A stretch of 64,000 nt of DNA, taken from positions 1-64,000 of the forward strand of contig JBGARZ010000001.1 in NCBI GenBank assembly GCA_044229975.1, given 5' to 3'. Within the stretch, counting starts at the first letter, position 1. Every line of letters starts with the position of its first letter. Both the position numbers and the translations under genes were made by a program. Source of the DNA: Polyangiales bacterium. Its GTDB lineage: Bacteria > Myxococcota_A > Polyangia > Polyangiales > Ga0077539. Under the pieces are notes generated by a model. It was not told the origin of the DNA, ran no database searches, and saw nothing but the letters and a program-made list of their open reading frames with translations. Positions 27,201 through 45,139 of the stretch are shown here, in pieces.

Positions 27201-27283
27201 CAGCGCCGCACTCTATCCAAACAGTCTGGAGACTTCACCCGCTCCGACCATCGGCGCCCACCTTGACGATCCCATCCCATCTA

Positions 27284-27298
27284 TGAGAGTGACTCTCA
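27284..27298. promoter_or_regulatory. Fur-like 7-1-7 operator upstream of the imelysin operon
   Basis: Perfect palindrome TGAGAGT-G-ACTCTCA just after TTGACG (27263); near-identical copy at 39953-39967. Confidence 0.7.
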
Positions 27299-27365
27299 CA
27301 ACCGGATGAATCAGGGCCCGCATGAGCGTGCTTTTGCCTGCAATCCCGGCGGATGGAGTGATCGA

Positions 27366-28556
27366 GTGAAGAAGCGAATGATCCTTTCGGGCGCCCTCCT
27401 CGGCGTGGTCGCGGCCCTGGCTGGTTGCAGCGACGAGGCCAGTCCGGCCACCACCAACCCGCCCGTTCCGGCGGCGGAGGCGGCGCCGGTTCTCGCGCAG
27501 CACGTCGGGCTGGTGCACGGCAGCTACGCGCTGGTGGTCAACCAGACGACGGCGATGCAGACGGCCATCAACACCTTCCTCACGACCCCGAGCGAGGCCA
27601 ACCTCGCCGCGGCGCGCACGGCCTGGGCTACGGCTCGTGTGACGTACGGGCAGACCGAGGCGTACCGCTTCTACGGCGGCCCCATCGACAACGAGATGAC
27701 CGGCGTCGAAGGCCAGGTCAACGCGTGGCCCATGGACGAGAACTTCGTCGACTACGTCACCGCCACGCCCATGAGCGGGATCATCAACGACACGACGACG
27801 TACCCGACGCTCTCGCGCGAGGCGATCTTGATGCAGAACGAGCGCGGCGGAGAGACCAACATCGCCACCGGCTGGCACGCCATCGAGTTCCTGTTGTGGG
27901 GCCAGGACCTGAGCGCGACGGGCCCGGGCGCCCGCCCGTACACCGACTACGTCACGGGCGCGGGCGGCACCGCGGCCAACCAGATGCGCCGCGGTCAGTA
28001 CCTCCGCCTCGTCACCGAGCAGCTCGTGGCCGACCTCACCACCGTGCGTGACGCGTGGACCCCGGGGACGCCCGGCAACTACGGCGCGACCTTCGGCGCC
28101 GACACCACGGTGGCCCTCCGCCGCATGCTCACGGGCCTCGGGTCGCTCTCGGGCGCCGAGCTCGCGGGCGAGCGCATGAGCGTGGCCTACAACTCCCGCG
28201 AGCAGGAGAACGAACACTCCTGCTTCAGCGACACCACGCACTCCGACCTGCTCAACAACGCCATCGGCATCCAGAACGTGTACCTTGGCCGCCTCGGCTC
28301 CATGGACGGCCCTGGTCTCAACGACCTCGTGCGCTCCCGCGACGCCGCGCTCAACACCCGGATGGAAGCCCAGCTCCAGTCGAGCATCGACCTGATCCGT
28401 GCGATTCCGGCGCCCTTCGATCAGGCCATCCTCGGCGCCGACACCACGCCGGGGCGCAGGGCCATCAAGGCGGCCATCGATGCGCTGCGCCTCCAGCGCA
28501 ACACCATCGTCGAAGTCGCCGCCCGCCTCGGCGTGTCGCTCACCCTCGAAGAGTAG
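27366..28556 (+). CDS. Imelysin-family iron-regulated lipoprotein (IrpA/IcmP-like)
   Basis: Lipobox LAGC; NAWP.DE..DY, GWHAIEFLLWGQD, ELAGER, EHSCFSD. Confidence 0.92.
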   Translation: MKKRMILSGALLGVVAALAGCSDEASPATTNPPVPAAEAAPVLAQHVGLVHGSYALVVNQTTAMQTAINTFLTTPSEANLAAARTAWATARVTYGQTEAYRFYGGPIDNEMTGVEGQVNAWPMDENFVDYVTATPMSGIINDTTTYPTLSREAILMQNERGGETNIATGWHAIEFLLWGQDLSATGPGARPYTDYVTGAGGTAANQMRRGQYLRLVTEQLVADLTTVRDAWTPGTPGNYGATFGADTTVALRRMLTGLGSLSGAELAGERMSVAYNSREQENEHSCFSDTTHSDLLNNAIGIQNVYLGRLGSMDGPGLNDLVRSRDAALNTRMEAQLQSSIDLIRAIPAPFDQAILGADTTPGRRAIKAAIDALRLQRNTIVEVAARLGVSLTLEE

Positions 28557-28560
28557 TCCG

Positions 28561-29969
<1,409 letters not shown>

Positions 29970-29973
<4 letters not shown>

Positions 29974-31070
29974 AGTCCCTTCCTTGTCTCGTCGCCTCGC
30001 TCGCCCTCGTCTCCGCCTGCTCCGATGACGCCGTCGTCGAGGTCGATCGCAACGCCGTGCTGCGCGACCTCACCGACAACGTGATGCTCCCCACGTACCG
30101 CGACCTCACCCCGCGCATGGACGCGCTCTCTCAGTCTCTCGGTGCGCTGTGCGCGACCCCGAGCAGCGAGAGTCTCACGGCGGCCCGCACCGCCTGGAGC
30201 GACGCACGCGGAGCGTGGAAGCGCGCGGCGGCCTTCCGCGGCGGCCCGATGGAGACGCTCAACACCTATCCCACGGTGGACTTCTACCCGGTGAGCACGA
30301 CGGCGGTGGAGGCGCTCATCGCGGGCGCCGACCCCCTCACCGCCGACAGCCTCGACGCGGTCGGAACCAACCGCCGCGGCCTCCCCGGCATCGAGGTCGT
30401 GCTCTTCGACGGCACCCGCGACGCGCCCACCCTCCTCGCCGCGTTGCGCGACGGCAGCGGGCCCTCGCGGCGCTGTCAGTACCTCGTCGCCGCGGGCGCC
30501 AACGTCGCACGCGCGACCACCGCCTTCGTCACCGCCTGGGAGCCGACGGGCGGCGGGTACGCCCGCACGCTCGCGACGGCGGGACAGGGGTCGAGCATCA
30601 CGACGTCGCGTGCGGCCATCGACCTCGTGGTCAACCAGGTCATCAACACGCTCGACGTGTTGCAGGTGTCGCGGCTGAGCGTTCCCAACGGGTCGCGCAA
30701 CGGCGGAACGCAGCAGCCCGACCAGACCGAGTCCATCCCCAGCGGACGCTCGACCACCGACCTCAGCGACTCGCTCGCGGGTGTGCGGGAGCTCTACTAC
30801 GGCACGCACGGTACGAGGCAGGGCCTCGGCATCGGGGCGATGGTCGTGGCGCGCAACCCGTCGCTCGACCGCAGCGTGCGCGCGGAGTTCGACGCGACGG
30901 CGCAGGCGCTCGCGGCCATCACCGTTCCGGTGCCGCGCGCGGTGACCGAGCAGCGCCCGCAGGTGGAGGCCGCCATCACCGAGCTCGGTCGCCTGAAGCG
31001 GCTCATCAAGGTCGACGTCGCCAACGCGCTCGGCGTGACCATCTCGTTCACCGACAACGACGGCGACTAA
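29970..31070 (+). CDS. Second imelysin-family lipoprotein
   Basis: Lipobox LVSAC; RGLPGIEVVLF; C-terminal FTDNDGD; GTGA coupling. Confidence 0.88.
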
Positions 31071-31075
31071 GCGCG

Positions 31076-32500
31076 GTGCTGGCGCGGTTGCGAGCCCGGC
31101 TCGACGCCCCGGTGGACGTCGCCTCCCTCGCGGCCTTCCGCATCTTCTTCGGGGCGATGATGTTCGCGGGCGTCGTGCGCTTCGCCGCGCGCGGATGGAT
31201 CGCCCCGCTCTACATCGAGCCCCGGCACTACTTCACGTACGTGGGCTTCTCGTGGGTGCGGCCGCTGCCGGGACCATGGATGTACGCGCTCTTCGCGGTG
31301 ATGGGCTGCGCGGCGCTCGGGCTCACCGTGGGGTGGCGCACCCGCGTGAGCGCGCTGGTCTTCGCGGTGACGTTCACGTGGGTCGAGCTCATCGACAAGA
31401 CCAACTACCTCAACCACTACTACCTGGTGTCGCTGCTGGCCTTCTGGCTGGCGCTGCTGCCAGTGGGCGGGGCGTTTTCGCTCGATGCGCGGCGCGACCC
31501 GTCGCTCGCGCGCTCGACGGTGCCGACCTGGATGGTGTGGTTCGTCCGCGCGCAGCTCGGGCTGGTGTACTTCTGCGCGGGCGTCGCGAAGCTGCGCCCC
31601 GACTGGTTGCTGCGGGCCGAGCCGCTGCACACGTGGCTGCTCGCCCGGGCGGATGTGCCGGTGCTGGGTGCGCTCTTCCGCTACCGGGCGACGGCCTTTG
31701 CGTTCAGCTACGGGGGCCTGGTCTTCGACCTGGGCGTGGCCTTCGCGCTCTGCCATCGGCGCACGCGACCGTGGGCCTACGCGGCGGTGGTGGCGTTCCA
31801 CGCGCTGACGTGGTCGCTGTTCAACATCGGGATGTTTCCGTGGGTGATGGTGGTCTGCACGACGGTGTTCTTCGGGGCGTCGTGGCCGCGGATACTCGTC
31901 TCCAAGGTCACCGCGCCCGGCCGCCGCGGGTTGAAAACCCACGGCAGCCAAGATGATGTCCGCGCCGCGGACTGTCCGATGTCCACGCACAATGACCAGC
32001 CCGCATCGCGGGCTTTCCCTTGGCTGCCGTGGGTTTTCAACCCGCGGCGGCCGGGCGCGACGGGCGCTCTCCTCCCCCTCGCCGCGCTGCACCTCGTGGT
32101 GCAGCTCGCGCTCCCGTGGCGGCACCTGCTCTACCCCGGCAACGTGCTCTGGAACGAGCAGGGCTTCCGCCTCGCCTGGCACGTCATGCTCATCGAGAAG
32201 TCCGGCGACGTGGAGTTTCACGTCCGCGACCCCCACACCGGCCAGCGCTGGACCGTCATGCCCGAGGAGTTTCTCACTCCCCTCCAAGGCCGGATGATGG
32301 CGCCCGTCCCCGACATGATCGTGCAGGCCGCCGGGTGGGTGCGCGACGATTTCGCCCGCCGCGGTCACCCCGATGTGGTGGTCACCGTCGACGCGTACAC
32401 CTCGCTCAACGGGCGGCCCGCGCGGCGGCTCATCGACCCCGCCGTCGACCTCGGGCGCGAGCGCGACTCGCTCGGCCCGAAGCCGTGGATCACACCTTGA
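31076..32500 (+). CDS. HTTM-domain vitamin K-dependent gamma-carboxylase-like protein
   Basis: LAAFRIFFG, DKTNYLNHYYL, YFCAGVAKLRPDW, FNIGMFP, GFRLAWHVML.EK, SLNGR..LIDP.VDL. Confidence 0.9.
   Translation: MLARLRARLDAPVDVASLAAFRIFFGAMMFAGVVRFAARGWIAPLYIEPRHYFTYVGFSWVRPLPGPWMYALFAVMGCAALGLTVGWRTRVSALVFAVTFTWVELIDKTNYLNHYYLVSLLAFWLALLPVGGAFSLDARRDPSLARSTVPTWMVWFVRAQLGLVYFCAGVAKLRPDWLLRAEPLHTWLLARADVPVLGALFRYRATAFAFSYGGLVFDLGVAFALCHRRTRPWAYAAVVAFHALTWSLFNIGMFPWVMVVCTTVFFGASWPRILVSKVTAPGRRGLKTHGSQDDVRAADCPMSTHNDQPASRAFPWLPWVFNPRRPGATGALLPLAALHLVVQLALPWRHLLYPGNVLWNEQGFRLAWHVMLIEKSGDVEFHVRDPHTGQRWTVMPEEFLTPLQGRMMAPVPDMIVQAAGWVRDDFARRGHPDVVVTVDAYTSLNGRPARRLIDPAVDLGRERDSLGPKPWITP
31912..32059. mobile_element. 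REPIN/MITE-like palindromic element inside the HTTM CDS
   Basis: Perfect 41-bp inverted arms (31912-31952 and 32019-32059), each with hairpin GGGTT-GAA-AACCC. Confidence 0.8.
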
Positions 32501-33890
32501 GCTTCTTCCAACCGCCGCGGCTGAACTTCACGCCCATCAGCACCGCCAGCGCCACGCCGTAGGCCGCCGCCGCGAGCCACACGCCGATGAGCCCGAGGCC
32601 CATCACCTTCCCCAGCAGCCACGCCAGCGGAACCAGACAGAAGAAGTGGAGCACCAGCTCCACCACCATCACGAAGCGCGTCTCGCCCGCCCCGAAGAGC
32701 GCCTGCGTCAGGATCATCGCCGTCGCGATCACCGGCCCCATGCACGCCATGATCTTCATCGGCCCGGCGCCCACCACGATGACCTCCGGCGCGTGCGTGA
32801 ACACCCCGAGCACCCGGTCGGGAAACACGAACATGAACAGCCCCAGCGCCCCGAAGAGCATCACGCCCAGCTTCACGCTCGTCCACGCGTAGCGCTCGGC
32901 CAGCTCAGGGTCGCCCTGCCCCAGGCTCTGCCCGACCAGCGTCGCCGTCGCGGTGCCGAAGGCGAGGCAGGACACGAAGGTCGCGCTCAGCACCTCGATG
33001 ATGATGGTGGTCGCCGCGCCGTTGAAGCTCGCCGCCGCGCCCGCGCGAATCGCGTCGTCGTCGATGGACGAGACCACCTTCGTGAAGATGAGGAAGCCCG
33101 TCATCACCGCCGTCGTCGCCACGCCGCCTGGCACCGACAGCTTCAGGAGCTGCTTCATGGTCGTCCACGACAGCACCCCCGGCCGGTAGAACTGGAACGC
33201 CGCCCGGTCGACGCCGCGCAGCGAGAAGCCGACCATCACCAGCAGGCCGATCCACGACGACACGCACGCCGCGACGCCGGCGCCCGACACGCCCATGTTG
33301 GGCGCGCCGAAGCGGCCGAAGATCAGGATCCAGCAGAGCAGGCCGTTGACGACGTTCATCGCGAGGGCGGCGAAGAGGTGCAGGTGCGTCTGGCCGACGC
33401 CGTCGTAGAAGCTCTTGTACGCAGCCGTCGCGGCCATCGAGGCGACACCCACGAAGCGCCACTGGGCGTACCCGACGCCGAGCGCCACCACGTTGGCGTT
33501 GTCGCTCAACTGGCGAAACACCCACGGCAGGCTGAACCACCCGCCGATCGTCCCGACGGCTCCGCCGACGAGGGCGATGACGGCGGCGTTGGGGAGCACC
33601 GCGCCTGCTTCGAGGGGACGGCCCTCGCCGATGCGCCGCGCCGTCGTGGCCTGGGTGCCCACGGAGATGGACGACAGGAAGCCGCCCACCGCCCACAGCA
33701 GCATGAGCGACGGCGTAAGCGCGAACTGCCCATCAGTGGCCACCTGCCGCGGGAGCTGGCCGATGAAGTAGGTGTCCACGATGTTGACCCCGGTCTGGGT
33801 CAGCATGGCCAGGATCACCGGGCCGGCGAGCTGGAGGATGCGCGCGGCCTTCGCACGATCGAGCCACGGACGCGAGGTCGTTGAGGTCAT
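32490..33890 (-). CDS. MATE family efflux transporter
   Basis: LAGPVILAML..NIVDTYFIGQL, G.P.MGVSGAGVA, duplicated 6-TM halves. Confidence 0.92.
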   Translation of the reverse strand: MTSTTSRPWLDRAKAARILQLAGPVILAMLTQTGVNIVDTYFIGQLPRQVATDGQFALTPSLMLLWAVGGFLSSISVGTQATTARRIGEGRPLEAGAVLPNAAVIALVGGAVGTIGGWFSLPWVFRQLSDNANVVALGVGYAQWRFVGVASMAATAAYKSFYDGVGQTHLHLFAALAMNVVNGLLCWILIFGRFGAPNMGVSGAGVAACVSSWIGLLVMVGFSLRGVDRAAFQFYRPGVLSWTTMKQLLKLSVPGGVATTAVMTGFLIFTKVVSSIDDDAIRAGAAASFNGAATTIIIEVLSATFVSCLAFGTATATLVGQSLGQGDPELAERYAWTSVKLGVMLFGALGLFMFVFPDRVLGVFTHAPEVIVVGAGPMKIMACMGPVIATAMILTQALFGAGETRFVMVVELVLHFFCLVPLAWLLGKVMGLGLIGVWLAAAAYGVALAVLMGVKFSRGGWKKLKV

Positions 33891-33994
33891 AGGTGCTTCG
33901 GTGCCCGTCTCGCTTGCGGAAGTGGGGACCACTACCCGGAAGGCGGAGACGTTGACAAGGCGCTGTGAGAGGGACTAACCCCCGCAGCGTCTCC

Positions 33995-34765
33995 ATGGAG
34001 GTCTCAGTGGTCGATCACGGTCGCTCGAAGCACAACGCCGCGTGGTCGGCTTTCACCTGGGTCGTCCGGGTCGCCGCGCTCGGCGCCCTCGCCGGTGGCT
34101 GCACCAGCCCCGACTATCCCAACTGCGAAAACGACCGCCACTGCCAGCGCGACGGGCACCGCGAGTTCTGCGTGAACCGTCACTGCCAGCAGTGCCGTAG
34201 TGGTGCCGATTGCGGCGCCGAGCAGACCTGCCTGCGTGGGCGCTGCGTCGACGGCGTCAACGCCTGCGACGGCGACAACGACTGCCTCTCGGGCCAGGTG
34301 TGCACCGAGCACCGCTGCGTCGCGCGCCCCGAGTGCGACGCCACGCGCACCTGCGGCACCGGCCGTCACTGCGAGGTCGGCCACTGCGTCGCCGATCCGA
34401 CCGAGGACACCGACCCCGTCGACAACCGCGGCCCGGTCTGCAACCTCGAGCCGCCGTACTTCGACTTCGACGACAACGCGCTCAGCCCCGCCGCCCGCGA
34501 GACCCTCGCCCGCGACGCCGAGTGCCTGCGCCGCGAGACCGGCAGCCGCTACACCCTCATCGGCCGCTGCGACTCCCGCGGCACCACCGAGTACAACCTC
34601 GCCCTCGGCGAGCGGCGCGCCCGCGTGGTGCGCCAGTACCTGATGAACCTCGGCGTGCTGCCCGATCGCATCGCGGTGTCGTCCGAGGGCTCCGAAGGCG
34701 CCACCGGCACCGATGACGAGGGCTACCGCCGCGACCGCCGCGTGGACTTCCGCCAGAGGCCCTGA
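33995..34765 (+). CDS. pal: Pal/OmpA-family lipoprotein with Cys-rich N-terminal repeats
   Basis: Lipobox LAGGC; YFDFD, G.CDSRGTTEYNLALGERRA, RRV. Confidence 0.85.
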   Translation: MEVSVVDHGRSKHNAAWSAFTWVVRVAALGALAGGCTSPDYPNCENDRHCQRDGHREFCVNRHCQQCRSGADCGAEQTCLRGRCVDGVNACDGDNDCLSGQVCTEHRCVARPECDATRTCGTGRHCEVGHCVADPTEDTDPVDNRGPVCNLEPPYFDFDDNALSPAARETLARDAECLRRETGSRYTLIGRCDSRGTTEYNLALGERRARVVRQYLMNLGVLPDRIAVSSEGSEGATGTDDEGYRRDRRVDFRQRP

Positions 34766-34770
34766 ACCCG

Positions 34771-35595
34771 ATGCCGTCGACGCTTCGCCCCGCCGCGCTC
34801 GTCGTGATGGCCGCCCTCAGCACCGGCTGCTGGGTGACGACCTCCGAAGCCGACCACACCCGCCGCGCCTTCGAGACCCGCGTCCGTGCGCTGGAGACCA
34901 ACGACCAGCAGCGCCGCCAGCAGCTCAACGAGGCCGTCGAGCGCGCCACCGCACAGGTCGCCACCCTCAACGAACAGCTCGAACAGGCCCGCACCCAGAC
35001 GCGCAACACCGCCGACCTCGGGGCCCGCATCGAGTCCTTTGAGGAGCGCATCCGCGGCCTCACCGGCACCCTCGAAGAACTCCGCCACTCGCTCGACGAG
35101 ACGGCCACGGCCCGCTCGCAGATCAACTCCCGCATCGAGGTCGTCGAGCGGCGGCTGGGCGTCGCGCCGATGGTCGATCCGTCGCAGGTTCCGGCCGACA
35201 ACACGGCGCTCTTCGCGCTCGCGCGGCAGGCCTTCGATGCGCGCGACTACGCCCGGGCCCGCTTCCTCGCGCAGGCGCTGGTCGCTCGCGCGGCGACCGA
35301 CGCGCTCGCCGACGACGCGAAGCTCCTCATCGGCCGCAGCCACCTCGCGGAGAACCGCGCCGCCACGGCGGTGCAGGAGTTTGCCTCCATCACGCGCGAC
35401 TACCCGTCGGGCGACGCGGTGCCCGACACCCTGGCCGCGCTCGCCGAGGCGTACACCAACCTGCGGATGTGCGTGCTGGCCCAGCGAACGCTTCGGCTGC
35501 TCATCGAGCGTCACGGCCGCACCCCGGCGGGCACCCAGGCTCCGGCCCGACTCGAAGCCGTGCGGCGGCTGCCGCGCGAGGCCTGCACGGAATGA
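34771..35595 (+). CDS. cpoB: Tol-Pal protein YbgF/CpoB-like (coiled coil + TPR)
   Basis: Lipobox, heptad coiled coil, TPR with DYP..D; directly after pal. Confidence 0.75.
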   Translation: MPSTLRPAALVVMAALSTGCWVTTSEADHTRRAFETRVRALETNDQQRRQQLNEAVERATAQVATLNEQLEQARTQTRNTADLGARIESFEERIRGLTGTLEELRHSLDETATARSQINSRIEVVERRLGVAPMVDPSQVPADNTALFALARQAFDARDYARARFLAQALVARAATDALADDAKLLIGRSHLAENRAATAVQEFASITRDYPSGDAVPDTLAALAEAYTNLRMCVLAQRTLRLLIERHGRTPAGTQAPARLEAVRRLPREACTE

Positions 35596-36962
35596 GCTCG
35601 GCCGCGCGCCCCGATCGCGGTGCGCCCGGTCCGTTGAGCGACACCACGCTCCGCATCGGCGCGGACGGCGTTCGCCTGGGCAACCGCATCGGCGAGGGAA
35701 CCCTCTCCGAGGTCTACCGCGGCACCCAGCAGTCCCTCGGCCGCGCCGTCGCGGTGAAGGTGCTCAAAGGCTCCGTCGCACCGACCTCGCCCCTCGGCCG
35801 CCGCTTCGAGCGCGAAGGCTCCCTGCTCGCCTCCCTCGCCCACCAGAACATCCCGCAGATCGTCGACGTCGGTCGCACCGAAGACGGCCGCCCCTTCCTG
35901 GTGATGGAGCTCGTCGAAGGCCCCACGCTCGCCGCACTTCGCGCCCCGCGTGAGGTGCTCGCGGCCGATGTCGCGACCATCATCGCGCTCAAGGTCGCCC
36001 GCGCGCTGGAGTACGCGCACCTGCGCGGCATCGTCCACCGCGACCTGAAGCCCGGCAACGTGCTCATCTCGCGGCGCGGCGAGGTGAAGCTCGCGGACTT
36101 CGGCCTCGCCCGCGAGATCAACGACACCGTCGACGACCGCCTCGGCGTGGTCGGAACGCCCGCGTACATGTCCCCCGAGCAGGTGCTCGGCGACAAGATG
36201 GACTTCCGCTCGGACATCTTCTCCTTCGGCATCGTCCTGTACGAAGCGCTCACGGGTCGCCGCCCCTTCCAGGAAGACCCGGGGCGCACGGTGATGCAGA
36301 AGATCCGCCTCGATCGCTACGTGTCGCCGCGGAGGTTTCGACCGGAGGTTCCGACGACGCTGGAGCGCATCCTCTCGCGCTGCCTGGAGAAGAACCCCTC
36401 GTATCGCTACCCCAGCACCGGCAGCCTCTGCGACGACCTCAACGAGCACCTCGCGCGGCGCGGCGTCATCTCGCACGAAGCCCGCCTGGTCGGGTACCTG
36501 CGCGAGTGCGGTCTCATCGAGGAACGCGACGTCCACGATGCGCTCGGACCGATGGCGGGCGCGTGGTCGAAGGCGCCGCCGAAGTACCACCCGATGCGGC
36601 AGATGGTGGCCGGGCAGTTCGCGGCGCTGGGCATTGCGCTCGGTGCGCTCGCGACGCTCGAGCTCACCCGCGGCCGCGAGCAGGACCCGACGGCCCTCAT
36701 CGGTCCGCGCCCCGCGGGTGCCGCGGGCGTCGGTCAGCTCCGCGTGCTCGCGCGCCCGTGGGCCGAGGTCATCGTCGACGGAACCACCGTGGACACCACG
36801 CCCATGAGCCGATCGGTTCCGCTCGCGCCGGGGCAGCACTTCATCCGCCTGCGCAACCCGGCGTACGTCACCGAAGACCGCGCCGTCCAGGTGAGCGCGG
36901 GGCAGACCGTCTGGATCGACGTCGACCTCCGCCCCACCCACGAGGCCCCCAGTGCGCCGTAG
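35592..36962 (+). CDS. Membrane Ser/Thr protein kinase with C-terminal PEGA-like domain
   Basis: VAVK, HRDLKPGN, DFG, GTPAYMSPE; TM; PWAEVIVDG..LAPGQH. Confidence 0.93.
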   Translation: MSSAARPDRGAPGPLSDTTLRIGADGVRLGNRIGEGTLSEVYRGTQQSLGRAVAVKVLKGSVAPTSPLGRRFEREGSLLASLAHQNIPQIVDVGRTEDGRPFLVMELVEGPTLAALRAPREVLAADVATIIALKVARALEYAHLRGIVHRDLKPGNVLISRRGEVKLADFGLAREINDTVDDRLGVVGTPAYMSPEQVLGDKMDFRSDIFSFGIVLYEALTGRRPFQEDPGRTVMQKIRLDRYVSPRRFRPEVPTTLERILSRCLEKNPSYRYPSTGSLCDDLNEHLARRGVISHEARLVGYLRECGLIEERDVHDALGPMAGAWSKAPPKYHPMRQMVAGQFAALGIALGALATLELTRGREQDPTALIGPRPAGAAGVGQLRVLARPWAEVIVDGTTVDTTPMSRSVPLAPGQHFIRLRNPAYVTEDRAVQVSAGQTVWIDVDLRPTHEAPSAP

Positions 36963-37893
36963 CGCCGTGGCGTTGGTGCTCGGTCTGGTGCTCGCGGGTC
37001 GCGCGGCGCTCGCCGACGTGACGCATGTGTTCACGCGGGGCGAGACCTTCGCGGCCATCGCCGAGCGCTACTACGGCAACACGGCGATGGAGCCCGTGGT
37101 CGTCGCGGCCAACTTCCTCCACCTGCAAGCGAACCCCAATCTCCCGACGGGAGTGCACCTCACCATCCCGAGCGTCGGGTACCACCGCGTCGCGACGGGC
37201 GAGACCTGGGAGCGGTTGGCGGCACGTCACCTCGGCGACGCCAATCGCGCGGCGTATCTCGCGCGCATCAACGGCGGGGTGTTCGGCGTGTCGCCGAGCG
37301 TCGGGGCGGTGATACGGCTTCCGTACCTGCTTCGATATGTGGTCGAGGCCGAGGAGCCGATGTTCGAGGTCGCGCGGCGCTTCTATGGCGACCGGGCGAT
37401 GGTGCAGTTCATCTCGGAGTTCAATCGGATGTCGTCGCAGCGGCTGGCGCGGGGGCAGTTGCTCATCCTGCCGCTCGCCGACCTCGTGCTGCGCGAGACG
37501 GCCGCCGACAGCGCCGACACCGCGCTCATCGCCGCGCACACCGCGCAGCGCCAGGTCGACCGGGAGATTCCGACGCTCGAACAGTTCGTGACGCGTGGGC
37601 TCTACGTCGAAGCGGTGGCGCTCGGCGGGCGGCTGCTCGGGCACGACGATCTCGCGAGCCCGCAGCGGGTGGTGGTGCTGCGACACGTGGCCGAGGCGTA
37701 CGCGGCGCTCGACCGGCGTGACCTCGCGGCGGATGCGTTCCGCGATTTGCTGAGACTCGAACCGGCCTTCGTGATGGACCCGGTGCGCACGGCGCCGAAG
37801 GTGCTCGACGCGCTCAGCCTGGCGCGAGGGACGGCACCCGAGCAGACGCTGCGGGCGGCACCGCCGACGGGGCGGCCGGATACGGCGCACTGA
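36952..37893 (+). CDS. LysM-repeat + TPR secreted protein
   Basis: Three LysM-like repeats (GETFAAIAERYYG, GETWERLAARHLG, FEVARRFYG). Confidence 0.8.
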   Translation: MRRSAVALVLGLVLAGRAALADVTHVFTRGETFAAIAERYYGNTAMEPVVVAANFLHLQANPNLPTGVHLTIPSVGYHRVATGETWERLAARHLGDANRAAYLARINGGVFGVSPSVGAVIRLPYLLRYVVEAEEPMFEVARRFYGDRAMVQFISEFNRMSSQRLARGQLLILPLADLVLRETAADSADTALIAAHTAQRQVDREIPTLEQFVTRGLYVEAVALGGRLLGHDDLASPQRVVVLRHVAEAYAALDRRDLAADAFRDLLRLEPAFVMDPVRTAPKVLDALSLARGTAPEQTLRAAPPTGRPDTAH

Positions 37894-37896
37894 AGC

Positions 37897-38131
37897 GACC
37901 ACGCCCGCGGTCGACGTCCGGGGCCCACGCCGCAGCGTTAGCGCGGCGCGCGTCCGCCCACGCCCGCGGTCACCGGCCTTACCCGGAGGGACGCGACCGC
38001 CCACGCCCGCGGTCACCGACCTTACCCGAAGGGACGCGACCGCTTGCGCCCGCGGTCGTCGGTCCGGAGCGCGTCGGGCGAGGTCGCGGTCGCGTCCCTC
38101 CGGGTAAGGCCTCCGACCGCGGGCGTGGGCG
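37897..38131. repeat. Intergenic REP-like mosaic: 43-bp direct repeats plus an inverted copy
   Basis: cgcccacgcccgcggtcaccggccttacccggagggacgcgac at 37955 and 37998, inverted at 38089-38131; 32-bp arm at 37920 shared with 8759. Confidence 0.85.
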
Positions 38132-38179
38132 GGTGCGCGCCAGAGCGACGGAGGTCGTCCGGGCGGGGTGTCTCGCTCT

Positions 38180-38545
38180 CTACTGCGTGCACACGCAGCG
38201 CGCCGTCGCACCGGCGACCACGCACGTCTGGTTTGCCCCGCATGCCGGTTCGTCCCCGCAGCGGCACGATCCGGGATCGCACCGGTCGGCCCGCAGGCAG
38301 ATCTCGGTCCCCGGGAGGCACAGTGCTGTTGCGAAGGGGTTGTTTCCCGCGGAGACCTGCGCCCACCGCACGCACGCGGCCTGCCCCTGACCATCACAGA
38401 TACCCGCGTGAATTGGCTGATCCGAGGCGGGCGCGCAGGCCCGCGCGACGTCCGCGCGACCTGCGTCCTCGTCCTCGCGCACGGCGGTCCCGCTGCACGC
38501 TGCGAGCGCCGTCAGCGCCGCAAGAAACCCCACCGCGTCCCGCAT
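38180..38545 (-). CDS. Small Cys-rich lipoprotein (121 aa)
   Basis: Lipobox ALAAC; about 12 further Cys. Confidence 0.65.
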   Translation of the reverse strand: MRDAVGFLAALTALAACSGTAVREDEDAGRADVARACAPASDQPIHAGICDGQGQAACVRWAQVSAGNNPFATALCLPGTEICLRADRCDPGSCRCGDEPACGANQTCVVAGATARCVCTQ

Positions 38546-39020
38546 CGCGACCATCACACGCACCATGGCACCGATCGGCGACCGGGACCAACGCCCCGCT
38601 CGCCGCCAACCGCAGCGTGGTCGCGTCCCTCCGGGTCTGACGTCCACTGCGCGCGTGGATGGATGCTCTCCGAAGCAACAGCACCTGTATGGGAGAGGCG
38701 TCAGCTCGACGCGTCGGTTGCATCCTTGGGCCACGGGATCTGTCCCCGCGTGAGCGGGTGGAACTCGCCGTCGGTGGGAGTGCATCAACGGCGTGTTTAC
38801 CACGGTGCGCTCGCGTGTTTCCCCCACGCCCTACCGTCCACCTCGCCCCTCCGCCACCGACGCCACCAACACCCCCCGTGTACCGCGCGCCCCTTCGCCA
38901 CCCGCTCCGCGACGCACTGGTTCTTCTGGACACCGCTCGCGCACCGACGGCACGATCACCACGATGGACCCGTCTGCCGGTACATCACCGGCGCGGCCGT
39001 CACTGGAGGGATGACGTTCC

Positions 39021-39875
39021 ATGAGCAAGGCGAAGACCCGCACTCCCAAACCCAAGCGCGCCCCCGCGAAGACCGCCACCGCGCGTGACCCCGACGTGCC
39101 CGTCGTCGACGGCTCACAGGCCGCCTACGACGCCTTCCTCCCCGCCGCCCTCCAGATCGCCGAAGCCGACGTGCGCCCCTTCCGCTACGACGCCTCGCTC
39201 GCCTTCCACAACGTCACCCGCGGCCTCGCCGCGCTCCAGCCCCACGAGGCCACCCTCCGCGCCGAGCTCCCGCGCACCGACGTCGCCGCGCTCCGCACCC
39301 TGCCCGACCTCGCGCTCGCCGTGATCTTCGCCGCCGATCAGGTCGACCGCGGCGCCGCCCGCAGCGACGGAACCACCGCCCGCCTCCTCAAAGAAGCCTT
39401 CGCCAGCCGCACGCTGCTCCTCGACGCCGCCACCGCGCTCGCGGGCAAGGGGCTCATCCCCAGGCGCTCTGTCGCCAAGATCCGCGAGGGCCGCGGCAAC
39501 ATCGACGCCGCCAGCGACTGCGTCGCGCTCGCCGCCCTCTTCCAGAAGCACGCCGCCGCCGTGAAGGGCCGCCACGCCCTCGCGAAGTCCGACCTCGCCG
39601 CCGCCAGCGACGTCGGCAACGCGCTGCTCAAGATCCTCATGCCGAAGCGCTCCCGCACCCGCACGACGCCCGCCGCCGTCCTGGACGCCATCGAAAACCG
39701 CGACCGCCTCTGGACCCTCCTCGTCGAGCGCTTCGAAGGCCCCCACGGCCTCGAACGAGCCGCCATGCACCTGTGGGGACGCGACGCCGCCGAGCACGTT
39801 CCCCCGCTGCTCTCCTTCAAGCCCGCCGCCCGCGCGAAGCCCGCACCCGCCCCCGCACCCGCCCCGGTCGCCTGA
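39021..39875 (+). CDS. Hypothetical helical protein
   Basis: GGAGG RBS, strong GC3 bias, Lys-rich N-terminus, PAPAPA tail. Confidence 0.75.
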   Translation: MSKAKTRTPKPKRAPAKTATARDPDVPVVDGSQAAYDAFLPAALQIAEADVRPFRYDASLAFHNVTRGLAALQPHEATLRAELPRTDVAALRTLPDLALAVIFAADQVDRGAARSDGTTARLLKEAFASRTLLLDAATALAGKGLIPRRSVAKIREGRGNIDAASDCVALAALFQKHAAAVKGRHALAKSDLAAASDVGNALLKILMPKRSRTRTTPAAVLDAIENRDRLWTLLVERFEGPHGLERAAMHLWGRDAAEHVPPLLSFKPAARAKPAPAPAPAPVA

Positions 39876-39951
39876 CGCCTTCCGTCGGCATTCTCCGACA
39901 ACACCTGTTGACCCGCCCCGCGCTCCGCGAGTATCCGTCCACACCCATCGT

Positions 39952-42195
39952 ATGCGAGTGATTCTCACCTTCACCAGCCGAGCTTCCTGGCTCGCCGGGG
40001 CCCTCGCATTCGCTCCGTCCGTCGCCTGGGCGCAGCCCGCACCGTCGCCGTCCGCATCGCCATCGCCGCCCGCCGACGATGACGACTCCGGCGAGGCCAT
40101 CGTGCGGGGCTCCTCCGCCCGCGCGATGGCGCGCATCCCCGGCGCGACCACCGTCATCAGCGAGCGCGAGATGCAGCGCACGCAGCCGCTCTCGGCCAAC
40201 GAGGCGCTGCGCCGCGTTCCCGGCGTCTACGTGCGCGACGAGGAGGGCATGGGCCTGCGCCCCAACATCTCCATCCGCGGCATGGACCCGACGCGCAGCC
40301 GCCGCGTGCTCGTCCTCGAAGACGGCATCCCCATCTCGCTCGCGCCCTACAGCGAACCCGAGATGTATTACAACCCGCCCGTCGAGCGGATGGGGCGCAT
40401 CGAGGTGATCCGCGGCTCGGGCAACGTGCTCTACGGACCGTCGACCGTCGGCGGCGTCATCAACTACGTCACGCCCGCGCCGCCCATGCGCGAGTCGTAC
40501 AGCCTCCGCACCACCGCGGGTGATCGCGGCTTCTTCATGGGCCAGATGACCTACGGCAACCGCGTCGGCAACGCGGGCTTCGTCGTGAGCGCGCTGCGCC
40601 GCCAGGGCGACGGCTTCCGCGGAATGGGCTTCGAGGTCACCGACGTCTACGGGAAGTTCGTGCTCCAACTTGGTCCGCGGCAGGAGCTGATGGCGCGCCT
40701 CGGCGTCTACAACGAGGGTTCCAACTCGACCTACCTCGGGCTCACGCAGTCCATGTACGAGCGCGACCCGCGGCAGAACCCCGTCCCCAACGACTTCTTC
40801 TCCGTGCAGCGTTTCAGCGGCGCGCTCTCCCACACGTGGACGCCCAACAGCACGTTTCAGCTCCGCACGCTGGCGTACGGGTACACCACCACGCGCAACT
40901 GGGACTTCCAGCGCTACGACCGCACGCCGATGGCCAACCCGAGCCTCCCCATCGCCGAGCAGCGACCCGGAACGCTCCTCTACGACCGCATCGTCGGCGA
41001 CCAGTCGACGCCCGGCGGCGCCATCTACCTGCGCGACGAGTCCCTCTCCGCCGACCGCGCCTATCAGGTCTACGGCTTCGAGCCGCGGCTGCGCGCGCGC
41101 TTCCGCACCGGCCCCTTCCGACACGACGTCGACCTCGGCGGACGCGTGCTCCACGAGAACTCCACGGTGCAGGTCATCCTCGGTCGCGGCGCCACCTCGC
41201 GCTCCGGCGACCTCGCCACGGAACAAGAACGCAACGGCACCGCCCTCGCCGCCTTCCTGCAAGAGCGATGGTTCATCACCGATCGGCTCAACCTTGTTCC
41301 GGGTGTGCGGGTCGAGAGCTACTTCTCGGAGGTGGTGCAGCGCCGCGACCTCGGCATGGACATCAACCGCACCTCCAACAGCCATTTCGTCGAGGTGATC
41401 CCCGGCGTGAGCGCGAGCTACCAGTGGCCCGCCGTCACGCTCTTCGGCGGCATGCACCGCGGGTACGCGCCGCCGCGCATCCTGCCGACCATCAACAGCT
41501 CGGCGCGTGACCAGCTCCTCGCGGCCGAGGAGAGCCTCAACTACGAGCTCGGGGCGCGCGTCTCGGTGGGCAACTGGCTGCGCGCCGAGGCCACCGGCTT
41601 CCTCATGGATTTCTCCAACGAGACCGTCCAGGTGTCGGGCGAGGACACGGAGTTCGCGTCCATCGGGCACACGCGGCACACGGGCGTCGAGGCCGCCGCG
41701 CAGGTCGACATCGGCCGCGCGCTGCACTCACGAACCAGCGTGTTCATCGGGCTGCGGTACACCTTCGTCGACGCGCGTGTGGTGGGCGATCGCACGGCCG
41801 CGGACGGCGTCACGCGCTTCGTCGACGGCAACACGGTGCCGTACGCGGTGCCGCACACGATGGTCACGAGCGTCGGCTTCGAGACCGCGTGGGGCCTCTC
41901 CGCGCAGGCGTCGTGGCTGTACGTGTCGCAACACTTCAGCGACGTGGACAACTCGCTCTTCCCCGCGGCCAACGGGCTCTTCGGGCCGATTCCCGCGTAC
42001 CAGACGGTCGACCTCGCGGCCCGCTACAACCACCGCCGCACGGGCCTCGGCGTGTCGCTCACGGTGAAGAACCTCCAGGGGTACTTCACCGACGAGCGCG
42101 GGATTCCCAACGTCTACATCGCCTCGCGCTCACCGCAGGGGATCTTCCCCGGAGGCTTCGGCCAGACCATGGTCGGCCTCCAGTGGAACCACTGA
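39952..42195 (+). CDS. TonB-dependent receptor, FecA-like
   Basis: Plug EALRRVPGV..PNISIRG..RS..VLVLEDG.P, RIEVIRGSG..YGP.TVGGVINY; beta-barrel strands. Confidence 0.93.
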   Translation: MRVILTFTSRASWLAGALAFAPSVAWAQPAPSPSASPSPPADDDDSGEAIVRGSSARAMARIPGATTVISEREMQRTQPLSANEALRRVPGVYVRDEEGMGLRPNISIRGMDPTRSRRVLVLEDGIPISLAPYSEPEMYYNPPVERMGRIEVIRGSGNVLYGPSTVGGVINYVTPAPPMRESYSLRTTAGDRGFFMGQMTYGNRVGNAGFVVSALRRQGDGFRGMGFEVTDVYGKFVLQLGPRQELMARLGVYNEGSNSTYLGLTQSMYERDPRQNPVPNDFFSVQRFSGALSHTWTPNSTFQLRTLAYGYTTTRNWDFQRYDRTPMANPSLPIAEQRPGTLLYDRIVGDQSTPGGAIYLRDESLSADRAYQVYGFEPRLRARFRTGPFRHDVDLGGRVLHENSTVQVILGRGATSRSGDLATEQERNGTALAAFLQERWFITDRLNLVPGVRVESYFSEVVQRRDLGMDINRTSNSHFVEVIPGVSASYQWPAVTLFGGMHRGYAPPRILPTINSSARDQLLAAEESLNYELGARVSVGNWLRAEATGFLMDFSNETVQVSGEDTEFASIGHTRHTGVEAAAQVDIGRALHSRTSVFIGLRYTFVDARVVGDRTAADGVTRFVDGNTVPYAVPHTMVTSVGFETAWGLSAQASWLYVSQHFSDVDNSLFPAANGLFGPIPAYQTVDLAARYNHRRTGLGVSLTVKNLQGYFTDERGIPNVYIASRSPQGIFPGGFGQTMVGLQWNH
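39953..39967. promoter_or_regulatory. Fur-like operator overlapping the receptor start codon
   Basis: TGCGAGT-G-ATTCTCA, 13/15 identical to 27284-27298; TTGACC at 39908. Confidence 0.65.
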
Positions 42196-42202
42196 CCGCG
42201 CG

Positions 42203-45139
42203 CTACAGCGTCGCGGCCACCGAGAGCACGTAGGACGTCATCGAGGGCGCCGGGGCCGCCGCCGTCGAGACGCCGTGCACGCAGACCGTGTACGTGCCCG
42301 CCGGGAGTCCGCCCGCGCCCGGAAACACCGTGCGTCGCGCGCCGTCGATGTTGGCGCAGTCGCCGGGGCCGTTCTTGTTGGCGACGAGTCGGATGGTGAC
42401 GCCGTCGGTGTCGTACAGCTCCATCGCGAGCTCGCCCGTCGCGAGGGGACAGCGCCCGTTGCCGTCGCTCGCGAAGGCCACGACGTTGCCGCCCGCGGGC
42501 ACCCGCACGGCCACGCAGTCCACGTCGTTGTACGGGAGCGCCCCGGCGACCGCGGTGGGCGCCGAGATCGCCCGCGACGCGACGAGCGCAGGCGTGTCGT
42601 TGCCCTCGACCTCGGCGGTCAGCGCGCCGCAGCGGCCGCGCACCACCGAGCTCGCGAGGCACGCCTGACCCGACGGGCAGAGGGTGGTGCCCACGAGGGG
42701 ATCGCAGTCGCCCGTGGTGACCGCCGCGCAGGTGCTCGGGGGCGTGAGCGAGCAGGTGAGCCCCGCGACGCAGGTGTTGCCAGCGCCGCAGCGCGCGCCC
42801 GCGACCGAGGCCGTGGCGCGGCACACGCCGTTGACGGTGTCGCCCGGGTTGGGAACGCAGGTGAGCCCCGCGGAGCAGTAGTGCGTGGGCCAGCGGCACG
42901 CCTCGCCGACGCCCACGCGGAAGATGCAGCGCCCGGCTCCCGTGTCGGTGGTGCACACCGCGCCGCCGTCGCAGCGCGTACCGCTCGCGCGGCAGTCGCC
43001 GCCCGCGACCCCGGTGCCGCCGCAGATTCCGTGGAAGGGGTCCGTCGGGTCGAAGCGGTAGCAGGTGCTGCCGGTGGCGCAGGCCGTCTGGAGCGAGCAG
43101 CTACCACCCGTGGTGGAGATCGTTCCGCAGACCTCGTCGCCCGACGGGGTGGTGAGGCAGGTCAAGCCGCTGTCGCAGCGTGTGCCGCTCGCGCGGCAGG
43201 TGCTCCCGTAGACGGTCCCGTCGGCGCGGCAGAGGCCCGAGATGGACTCCAGCGGGCCGACGCAGTGGTACCCCGTGGGGCACACGTTGCGGGTCGGATC
43301 ACACGCGCCGTTGGCGACCGACGGGATCATGCACTGCGTGACGCCGGTGCTCGTGATGACGCCGCACGCGAGGCCGGTGTCGCACTGCGGGGCGGCGCTT
43401 CGGCACGGGGAGCCGATGTCGCTGCCGGGCGCCACGCAGGTGCCGCGCGTGGTGCCGAAGATGATCGTGCGGCAGTAGTTGCCGCCGCTGCAGCGGTTGT
43501 AGTCGTCGCACGAGGCGCCGAGGCCGACGTCGCGGACGCAGACGTTGGCGGCGGCGCCGGTGGTGCCGCAGCTCAGGCCGACGTCGCACTGCGGGGAGGC
43601 CGTGCGGCACGTGGCGCCGACGCCGGTGCCCGCCGCGCGGCAGATGCCCGTCTCGCTGCCGGCCAGCGGGAGCGCGCAGGTCAGGCCGCTCGCGCAGCGG
43701 CCGGTGGCGCTGTCGGCGCGGCAGGTGGAGCCCGACGGGATGGTGTTGTCCTCGGTGATGGTGAGCTCGAAGGCGCCGCGGTCGAAGGTTCCGCTGGTGA
43801 GCGGCGAGTAGCCGCCGACGACGAGGTAGAGCGTGTAGCCGGCCGGGAGCGAGTCGATGTTGATGCGCGAGGTGAGCCCGCGCGTCGACGCGAGGTCGGG
43901 GTCGTCGTCGTTGCACGGGCTGGTGATCGACGCCGCGCAGCTCGCGGCGGCATAGAGCACCGTGTCGAGGCTGGCGCGCGTGCCTGGGTTGGAGGTGGTC
44001 ACCCGCAGCGTCGCGCTCATGGTGGTCGTGTAGCGGTAGATCACCTGGCCCGTGGAGCGCGGACACGACGCCGTCGCGTTGACGATGGGCGAGCGCGACG
44101 CGAGCACGCCGCCCGGGTTTTGCGTCGACCAGGCCGTGGTGTTGTCACCGAGGATGCGGAGCACGTTGCCCGTGCGGATGCCGACGCGCGCGGCGTCGAT
44201 CACCGAGAGCCCGGCGCACTGCTCGCCGCACACGCCGCCCGGCGGGCACTCGCACGCGCCCGCGGTGCAGCGCTCGCCCGAGGGGCACGATCGGTTGCAG
44301 CCGCCGCAGTGGGTCGCGTTGGTGGCGGTGTCGACGCACTGGCTCCCGCAGAGGGTGCCCGCGGTGCACGCGCAGGCGCCCGCGACGCAGGTCGACCCGA
44401 CGCCGCAGGGGTTGTCGCAGCGACCGCAGTGGGTGTTGGAGCTGGACACGTCGAGGCACACGCCGCCGCATCGCACCCGCGTGCCGTCACACTCGCAGCG
44501 CCCCGAACGACAGACCTCGCCCGCCGCGCACGTCGCGCCGTCGTCGACCGTTCCGTCGCAGTCGTCGTCGCGCCCGTTGCATGTCTCGACTGCACCCTGG
44601 AACACCGCCGGGTTGCCGTCGTCGCAGTCGTCGCCGCCGCAGACGCGCGGCGCGTGCATGTCACCGTCGCCGTCGAGCGGGCGCGCGACACAGATGCGCG
44701 TGGCGGGGTCGCAGCGCTCGCCGGTGGTGCACGGGTCGGTGTCGGCGCAGTCGAGGTCGCTGCCGCAGATGCGCGGAGGCACGTCCACCGCCGGAGGCAC
44801 GTCCACCACTGGAGGCACATCGACGGCAGGAGGAACATCGACGGCCGGAGGAACATCGGGCGTCACGACCACGTCCGGCGCCGCGGTGACATCGTCGGAG
44901 GAGACGACATCCACTCCGGGAACCACATCATCAGCAGGCGTCCCATCGACGGTGGGAGTGACGTCGACGGTCGGCATCGCGTCGATGGCCGGACCCACGT
45001 CCACGCCCTGCTTTCCGTCGAGCACCACTGCGACATCGGCCGCGTCGGCGGAGGCGTCGTTGGTGTTGAAGTTGCCGCCCAGCGAAGGCGAACAGGCAAC
45101 GACGGAGAGGAGCCCAAGCAGGAAAAGTGGCCGACCCAT
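42203..45139 (-). CDS. Large Cys-rich lipoprotein with MopE-like metal-binding motif
   Basis: Lipobox VVAC; DGDGD..DCDD..P...ETCNG.DDDCDG; HCG.C repeats; PPC-like domains. Confidence 0.8.
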   Translation of the reverse strand: MGRPLFLLGLLSVVACSPSLGGNFNTNDASADAADVAVVLDGKQGVDVGPAIDAMPTVDVTPTVDGTPADDVVPGVDVVSSDDVTAAPDVVVTPDVPPAVDVPPAVDVPPVVDVPPAVDVPPRICGSDLDCADTDPCTTGERCDPATRICVARPLDGDGDMHAPRVCGGDDCDDGNPAVFQGAVETCNGRDDDCDGTVDDGATCAAGEVCRSGRCECDGTRVRCGGVCLDVSSSNTHCGRCDNPCGVGSTCVAGACACTAGTLCGSQCVDTATNATHCGGCNRSCPSGERCTAGACECPPGGVCGEQCAGLSVIDAARVGIRTGNVLRILGDNTTAWSTQNPGGVLASRSPIVNATASCPRSTGQVIYRYTTTMSATLRVTTSNPGTRASLDTVLYAAASCAASITSPCNDDDPDLASTRGLTSRINIDSLPAGYTLYLVVGGYSPLTSGTFDRGAFELTITEDNTIPSGSTCRADSATGRCASGLTCALPLAGSETGICRAAGTGVGATCRTASPQCDVGLSCGTTGAAANVCVRDVGLGASCDDYNRCSGGNYCRTIIFGTTRGTCVAPGSDIGSPCRSAAPQCDTGLACGVITSTGVTQCMIPSVANGACDPTRNVCPTGYHCVGPLESISGLCRADGTVYGSTCRASGTRCDSGLTCLTTPSGDEVCGTISTTGGSCSLQTACATGSTCYRFDPTDPFHGICGGTGVAGGDCRASGTRCDGGAVCTTDTGAGRCIFRVGVGEACRWPTHYCSAGLTCVPNPGDTVNGVCRATASVAGARCGAGNTCVAGLTCSLTPPSTCAAVTTGDCDPLVGTTLCPSGQACLASSVVRGRCGALTAEVEGNDTPALVASRAISAPTAVAGALPYNDVDCVAVRVPAGGNVVAFASDGNGRCPLATGELAMELYDTDGVTIRLVANKNGPGDCANIDGARRTVFPGAGGLPAGTYTVCVHGVSTAAAPAPSMTSYVLSVAATL

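Follow-up and report, generated by a model that had tools for sequence, protein, structure and literature searches.

An imelysin operon of a Polyangiales bacterium pairs a vitamin K-dependent carboxylase homologue with a conserved aspartate tail that may be its substrate

The window analyzed here, 64,000 nucleotides of contig JBGARZ010000001.1 from a Polyangiales bacterium (assembly GCA_044229975.1, positions 1 to 64,000), contains a four-gene operon that encodes imelysin A, a di-haem oxidoreductase of the DHOR/DUF1111 family, imelysin B and a homologue (VKGC) of the human vitamin K-dependent gamma-carboxylase GGCX, as well as a FecA-like TonB-dependent receptor (Table 1). The ICMP-PA4371-PA4372-type trio, consisting of a GxHxxE imelysin, a DUF1111 di-haem protein and a GxxxxE imelysin, is complete within this one operon, and its fourth gene encodes an HTTM-domain protein, the VKGC, rather than the proteobacterial DUF1513. 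Imelysin B ends in an aspartate-rich (D-x-D) tail. We propose, at slightly less than an even chance, that VKGC carboxylates an aspartate of this tail and thereby produces a protein-tethered iron chelator. Imelysin operons have long been known as Fur targets without a mechanism, and bacteria widely encode GGCX homologues, for almost none of which a substrate is known; a three-way exchange of the fourth gene beside a conserved, flexible D-x-D tail joins these two questions, and both the VKGC and a hydroxylase version are present in this one genome.

The D-x-D tail closely accompanies the HTTM protein. In loci found with the HTTM protein, a D-x-D imelysin lies directly upstream in 55 of the 60 full-length rows, confirming the expectation that HTTM would be kept beside the imelysins in relatives; of the five exceptions, three lie at contig edges, L011 has a broken imelysin and L038 has none. 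In a family-based phylum sample of 301 genomes searched with PF22777, 27 of the 29 top loci contain a D-x-D imelysin, one is truncated and one is without it. The tail is present in 142 of 145 rows of B-type or GDND-type imelysins and in none of 75 rows of the imelysin A type (duplicates included), and residues D344 and D346 of imelysin B are invariant in 70 sequences. The AlphaFold2 (AF2) model of imelysin B has a body with predicted local distance difference test (pLDDT) values of 88-99 and a mean of 57 for the last six residues. The same tail residues are disordered in the crystal of IPPA from Psychrobacter, whose sequence ends in the same motif.

VKGC, which ends at 474 residues, aligns to residues 50-490 of human GGCX (E = 2e-43). 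Its AF2 model (pLDDT 91.8) matches GGCX in Foldseek with a template modeling (TM) score of about 0.8 (E = 1e-22) and contains the HTTM plus lumenal-domain fold of that enzyme. Functional residues were mapped on 70 aligned HTTM homologues as named in the available parts of PMC12647623 and PMC12589487, where K218, W223, N159, H160, D263, F286, F294 and F299 are described as base, quinone-pocket, CO2-site and carboxylate-binding residues. Seven of these (K218, W223, N159, H160, F286, F294 and F299) are identical in all 70 homologues, as is H287, which is not named in those parts, and D263 is identical in 69; V210 and G259 are each found in 67. Thus, the catalytic Lys218 and the vitamin K/CO2 pocket (W223, D263, F286, F294 and F299) are kept in 69 to 70 of the 70. 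In this alignment, the parts that activate quinol are retained, as is half of the carboxylate site, and the substrate-docking parts are rebuilt, with an Arg newly placed at position 396 in 64 of the 70 homologues. The genome also encodes the classic menB (match above cut-off) and a VKOR-family protein; PF02621, of the futalosine pathway, had no match in the genome.

Two proteins unrelated to VKGC occupy the same slot elsewhere, which suggests that VKGC may convert the tail into an iron ligand. In a second cassette of the same genome (L105), a fatty-acid hydroxylase is joined in frame to a GDND-ending imelysin, and weak Fur-type boxes precede the first and last genes. The hydroxylase-imelysin fusion was found in 12 of 12 same-family loci, each with an internal lipoprotein-like signal, and the GDND-type imelysin adjoins HTTM instead in L045, L048, L069, L141 and L142. 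Among the best 80 of 555 metagenome loci surveyed for the hydroxylase, 35 contain an imelysin, which ends in a D-x-D tail in 34 and in EGD in one, and at least nine have the exact order imelysin A-DHOR-imelysin B(DADGD)-hydroxylase; none of these 80 has an HTTM or DUF1513 match within the fetched DNA. Grouping the 35 imelysin-containing loci by identity gives 20 groups at a threshold of 70% and 7 at 55%. In Sulfitobacter and Pseudomonas plasmids, it is DUF1513 that comes after DGD-tailed imelysins. In a quick tree of 46 hand-picked imelysins, the starred branches require at least five changes for the HTTM label and at least five for the hydroxylase label; because the hydroxylase is not directly adjacent in L217, L246, L252 and L269, the count of partner changes may be somewhat lower.

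The simplest account, by analogy, is that VKGC and the hydroxylase, two unrelated O2-using membrane enzymes that can each functionalize a C-H bond adjacent to a carboxylate and that interchange beside an Asp-rich tail, share the task of placing a second metal ligand on Asp. With menaquinol, O2 and CO2, VKGC would carboxylate one Asp of the D-x-D tail of imelysin B, and the resulting beta-carboxy-Asp, a malonate-type ligand, would act as a tethered Fe(III) chelator; the hydroxylase version would produce beta-hydroxy-Asp on the tail. Beta-hydroxy-Asp is a common siderophore ligand. The modified tail would then bind iron and either pass it to the receptor or take it over from there, DHOR would change the redox state of the iron, and an iron complex resembling that of citrate would match a FecA-like receptor. 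Carboxylation of an aspartyl residue by a bacterial VKGC orthologue, MloH, is described in the accessible parts of PMC12647623 and bioRxiv 10.64898/2026.08.19.745780. In its wider form, the proposal would define a ribosomally made, protein-tethered siderophore whose D-x-D tail is turned into an Fe(III) ligand by VKGC, a di-iron hydroxylase or DUF1513 across phyla, which we regard as possible but doubtful. If true, the proposal would bring vitamin K-dependent protein carboxylation to bacteria, explain what a large clade of bacterial GGCX homologues does, hint at the ancestral role of the blood-clotting enzyme and define a protein-bound type of siderophore; if false, the cassette is an ordinary, widespread iron-uptake operon.

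Several observations weigh against carboxylation of the tail. Among the 70 homologues, Y395 is replaced by F in 45 and retained in only 10, N158 is replaced by L in all 70, K217 is replaced by A, and neither R436 nor H440 is kept. The PBD-2 propeptide lobe is missing as well, the alignment to GGCX stopping near human residue 490; given the altered Glu-site residues and the loss of this lobe, protein carboxylation may not occur. The VKGC of this genome also carries a 49-codon insertion, though in a low-confidence loop. A Leptospira VKGC orthologue is said to act as an epoxidase only. Of 20 chosen weaker VKGC-domain matches, 10 adjoin a D-x-D imelysin and 10 have no imelysin nearby, so that the pairing appears specific to one HTTM clade. 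The tail is equally conserved beside DUF1513 and may therefore be a plain docking or metal-binding motif; DUF1513 is not known to have a catalytic activity, and it had no meaningful relative by sequence in the Protein Data Bank (PDB). The His-box di-iron site of such hydroxylases is usually cytoplasmic, whereas the tail is exported. Finally, IPPA produced in E. coli showed no binding of haem or Fe3+ (PMC3143127, available in part), a result that fits, by analogy, a need for modification of the tail and also fits no iron binding at all.

In an alternative account, the tail would stay unmodified and serve for docking or metal binding, and VKGC would be a quinol-oxidizing redox partner, acting as an epoxidase or oxidase only and connecting the pool of menaquinone with DHOR or with the reduction or release of iron. 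Residues on the quinone side never vary and several on the substrate side do, the operon includes a di-haem redox protein, and the tail is kept with three unrelated partners, DUF1513 among them. We consider this account unlikely, as N159, H160 and the CO2-site residue F299, needless for pure quinol oxidation, are also kept in 70 of 70, and HTTM often occurs with a D-x-D imelysin and a receptor where the fetched stretch has no DHOR match (for example the upstream copy in L008, and L045, L048, L069, L141 and L142).

The substrate of the fourth-slot enzymes might instead be a small molecule or lipid, such as a chelator or lipoprotein acyl chains, imelysin B only binding or carrying the product. 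The fatty-acid hydroxylase family acts on lipids, MloH acts on a polyketide-peptide intermediate (bioRxiv 10.64898/2026.08.19.745780, accessible part), and Xu et al. describe an imelysin pocket for small molecules (PMC3143127). However, such a substrate would leave a strictly terminal, conserved yet disordered D-x-D unexplained, and no recurring chelator-biosynthesis gene was seen beside the cassette in the mapped loci, where no systematic search was made; this explanation is quite unlikely in our judgment. Carboxylation of the imelysin B tail remains the reading that we prefer. A divergent group of VKGC-domain proteins without an imelysin nearby (L182-L186, L188, L190, L194, L198, L199 and L171) mostly lacks YLNHY and may have other substrates; some of its members follow long open reading frames (ORFs) of 676-1044 codons, two of which share a similar WRWR ending.

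Sequence evidence indicates that the cassette and the receptor are probably induced through Fur when iron is scarce, Fur binding being predicted from the boxes. The near-identical sequences quoted in the preliminary description are both present: as 19-mers, boxes 1 and 2 differ at 3 of 19 positions, and each is the other's sole match at three or fewer mismatches in the 10,025,150-base genome. Both have the 7-1-7 palindrome of the Fur-type consensus, as in PMC5609570 (available in part). Among the relatives, a box with three or fewer mismatches lies upstream of imelysin A at 11 of 26 loci, where shuffled sequence predicts 0.27; the corresponding figures are 7 of 13 (0.03 expected) for the hydroxylase-imelysin fusion and 2 of 5 (0.03 expected) for the closer homologues of the window receptor. 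None was found before a second receptor type in 21 relatives, where that receptor lies mostly inside operons. A TTGAC hexamer had been reported upstream of each box, and both are present (about 1.5% chance per box within 45 bp). Their start-to-start spacing differs, 19 bp before the operon box and 43 bp before the receptor box, and a sigma-70 scan of 27100-42400 yielded no full promoter and no -10 element.

The genome was also ranked with a matrix of 18 sites from relatives, which were chosen by closeness to a pattern from the window boxes and a Fur consensus, so that the top ranks of the window boxes are partly circular. The sites ranked 2 and 3 lie upstream of a multicopper oxidase and of an hmuY-receptor-hmuY-hmuTUV-hemS operon, respectively; bfd-bfr (13.4) and exbD-tonB (12.3) have weaker sites, and the site before the second imelysin locus has rank 88. 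Composition-matched local shuffles gave 2-7 sites scoring at least 18 against 5 real ones, and 57-72 scoring at least 12 against 41 real ones. Genome-wide rarity of the box was therefore rejected as proof, matrix scores being no better than those of shuffles. Since the matrix is also partly circular, the argument rests on the position and conservation of the box, which support the earlier suggestion of iron regulation through a common Fur-type box. The companion suggestion that the split pair shares one operator finds no support in that form, and a private two-site operator was rejected, because the box is of a general Fur type and is found before the haem-uptake operon too, with weak forms before bfd-bfr and exbD-tonB. 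Thus, the operon and the receptor appear to belong to an ordinary Fur-type iron regulon.

Alternatively, the regulon might respond to another metal (Zn, Mn or lanthanides) or to peroxide stress by way of a different Fur-family protein. The genome has one clear Fur gene, at G000:C32:476812-477288, and three weaker Fur-family matches, and the Leptospira homologues also rise with H2O2 (bioRxiv 10.1101/2020.04.03.015982). A metal other than iron is very improbable, however, given the same box at haem uptake and, weakly, at bfd-bfr and exbD-tonB, the induction of the Riemerella homologues without iron (PMC5609570), and the best Fur-family protein, which fits ferric Fur models far better (E = 4e-32) than Zur (7e-10) or PerR (6e-18), all below cut-off. 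The haem-uptake locus (L146, G000:C32:1107177-1117837) encodes hmuY-receptor-hmuY-hmuTUV-hemS followed by a separately boxed multicopper-oxidase lipoprotein, with strong Fur-type boxes at 1117885 and 1108930. Five identical Fur-like 19-mers (G000:C4:2937, C34:362068, C34:218887, C32:709340 and C14:52230), each before an identical-looking 447-residue ORF, are probably an insertion-sequence end.

The receptor gene is separated from the operon by 7.5 kb of unrelated genes encoding MATE, OmpA-domain, TPR, Ser/Thr kinase and LysM proteins and one unassigned protein. Its best NCBIfam matches are TIGR01783 and FecA NF041676, both below cut-off; with 157 bits against the NF041676 cut-off of 1100, it can be called FecA-like only. 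In a quick tree it groups with the receptors of L005 and L006 (Polyangiales, Myxococcota) with a Shimodaira-Hasegawa-like approximate likelihood-ratio test support of 98. These orthologues abut the operon, which upholds the earlier assignment of the receptor to it: they are convergent, lie directly after HTTM and each have their own box. The simplest view of the split is thus that two units, each with its own box, were rearranged.

Table 1. Coordinates of the features discussed. Positions are those of the window, except for the second cassette.
Feature	Position	Strand	Remarks
TTGACG, -35-like hexamer	27263-27268	+	upstream of the operon; no canonical -10 found
Fur-type 7-1-7 palindromic box 1	27282-27300 (core 27284-27298)		rank 1 in the genome with the relatives' matrix
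Imelysin A	27366-28556	+	PF09375, E = 4e-82; GxHxxE type (ICMP/LruB-like); predicted lipoprotein; no acidic tail
DHOR/DUF1111 di-haem oxidoreductase	~28561-29973	+	PF06537, E = 3e-99; two CxxCH; predicted lipoprotein; start inferred
Imelysin B	29970-31070	+	PF09375, E = 7e-46; GxxxxE type (IPPA/PA4372-like); predicted lipoprotein
D-N-D-G-D tail codons of imelysin B and stop	31053-31070	+	conserved C-terminus; candidate substrate
HTTM/VKGC gene	31076-32500	+	PF05090, E = 1e-82; PF22777, E = 8e-46; GGCX homologue; Lys172 = human Lys218
148-bp near-perfect REP-like palindrome	31912-32059		within a loop of the VKGC gene; 38-bp arms; frame stays open
TTGACC, -35-like hexamer	39908-39913	+	upstream of the receptor
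Fur-type box 2	39951-39969		overlaps the predicted ATG of the receptor; rank 5 in the genome
FecA-like TonB-dependent receptor	39952-42195	+	PF00593, PF07715; orthologous to operon-abutting receptors in relatives
Second cassette (L105)	G000:C32:669318-675511		hydroxylase-imelysin (GDND) fusion at 669318-671450, TonB receptor, DUF5122 beta-propeller lipoprotein

Pfam matches and coordinates bear out the four packed or overlapping genes and the TonB receptor that had been described, and HTTM does take the place of DUF1513. The D-x-D tail of imelysin B and the hydroxylase that interchanges with HTTM, the most informative features, do not figure in that description. Imelysin B overlaps the end of the DHOR gene through GTGA; the imelysin motifs are GWHAIE at residue 169 of A and GLPGIE at residue 137 of B. 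Gene starts were taken from the sequence reading, and the lipoprotein-like signals with Cys in the first three genes were judged by eye. DUF1513 had no match across the genome in a search that yielded no positive control either. Rfam gave no match in 27000-42500, and the 284-residue protein encoded directly 5' of the receptor (39021-39875) has no Pfam match. The palindrome in the VKGC gene, which we take to be REP/REPIN-like, shares its arm with 14 genome loci, four of which are full-length two-arm elements, and is absent from the close relatives L007 and L014; its limits were set from the repeat arms, DNA alignments to those two relatives being poor. A second, distant HTTM-domain gene (G000:C11:587576-588655, E = 8e-7) has neighbors that look Flp/Tad-pilus-like by eye and no imelysin. 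Two further DHOR-like genes (G000:C2:322-1488 and C30:88638-89594) have no imelysin neighbors.

The order imelysin A-DHOR-imelysin B-HTTM occurs in 44 of the 70 loci found with the HTTM protein, distributed over Bacteroidota, Chloroflexota, Verrucomicrobiota, Myxococcota and SAR324; many of the remaining loci are contig-cut or have the order imelysin-HTTM-receptor. The RefSeq annotation of Chondrinema shows the four-gene order with a receptor. The cassette is thus neither specific to Myxococcota nor unnoticed, in view of these phyla, this annotation and a version induced without iron in Riemerella (PMC5609570, available in part): the operon type, its iron regulation and the presence of VKGC in it are already known or annotated. 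In a search that left most subscription journals outside its scope, no published function was found for the HTTM-imelysin pairing, the D-x-D tail or the hydroxylase swap, nor any publication naming imelysin with HTTM or with DUF1513, and no imelysin appeared among the hydroxylase papers listed (20 of 60). PMC5609570 was the only paper found to name a gamma-carboxylase together with an imelysin. The available parts of PMC5561996 and PMC9478572 mention imelysins only, and that of bioRxiv 10.64898/2026.08.19.745780 describes a different pair, HTTM-DUF5819.

The closest known relatives of the trio are the Pseudomonas aeruginosa PA4370-PA4373 and Psychrobacter IPPA operons (Xu et al. 2011, PMC3143127), which likewise combine a GxHxxE imelysin, a DUF1111 di-haem protein and a GxxxxE imelysin, are Fur-regulated and, in IPPA, end in the same DGD tail. 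They differ in that the fourth gene here is HTTM/VKGC instead of DUF1513, and the text of that paper that was searched has no mention of a carboxylase. In Riemerella anatipestifer, RAYM_09779-09794 likewise combine a TonB receptor, a 'vitamin K-dependent gamma-carboxylase' and an imelysin, and are 2.1-3.1-fold up without iron and 1.4-1.9-fold up in a fur mutant; in the accessible part of PMC5609570 they are a table entry only, with no function proposed and no DHOR among them, and the receptor is a separate transcription unit in the window. The Leptospira LruB operon LIMLP_14170-14180 has the order imelysin-thiol peroxidase-imelysin, with the TonB receptor LIMLP_14160 nearby, and is up under iron limitation (bioRxiv 10.1101/2020.04.03.015982); carboxylase, hydroxylase and desaturase are mentioned 0 times in that paper.

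Human GGCX (PDB 9wfc, 9bvk and others) resembles VKGC in its fold (TM about 0.8) and in Lys218, W223, D263, F286/F294/F299 and N159/H160. Unlike GGCX, VKGC lacks both the PBD-2 propeptide lobe and the Arch domain and has mostly F for Y395, L for N158 and A for K217; in place of a Gla-domain substrate, its candidate target is a C-terminal Asp. MloH of malonomycin biosynthesis (Law et al. 2018, as cited in the available part of PMC12647623), likened here by description and not by sequence, works within a biosynthetic cluster on an intermediate of a polyketide synthase-nonribosomal peptide synthetase; like the reaction proposed for VKGC, its activity is that of a bacterial VKGC orthologue carboxylating an aspartyl residue.

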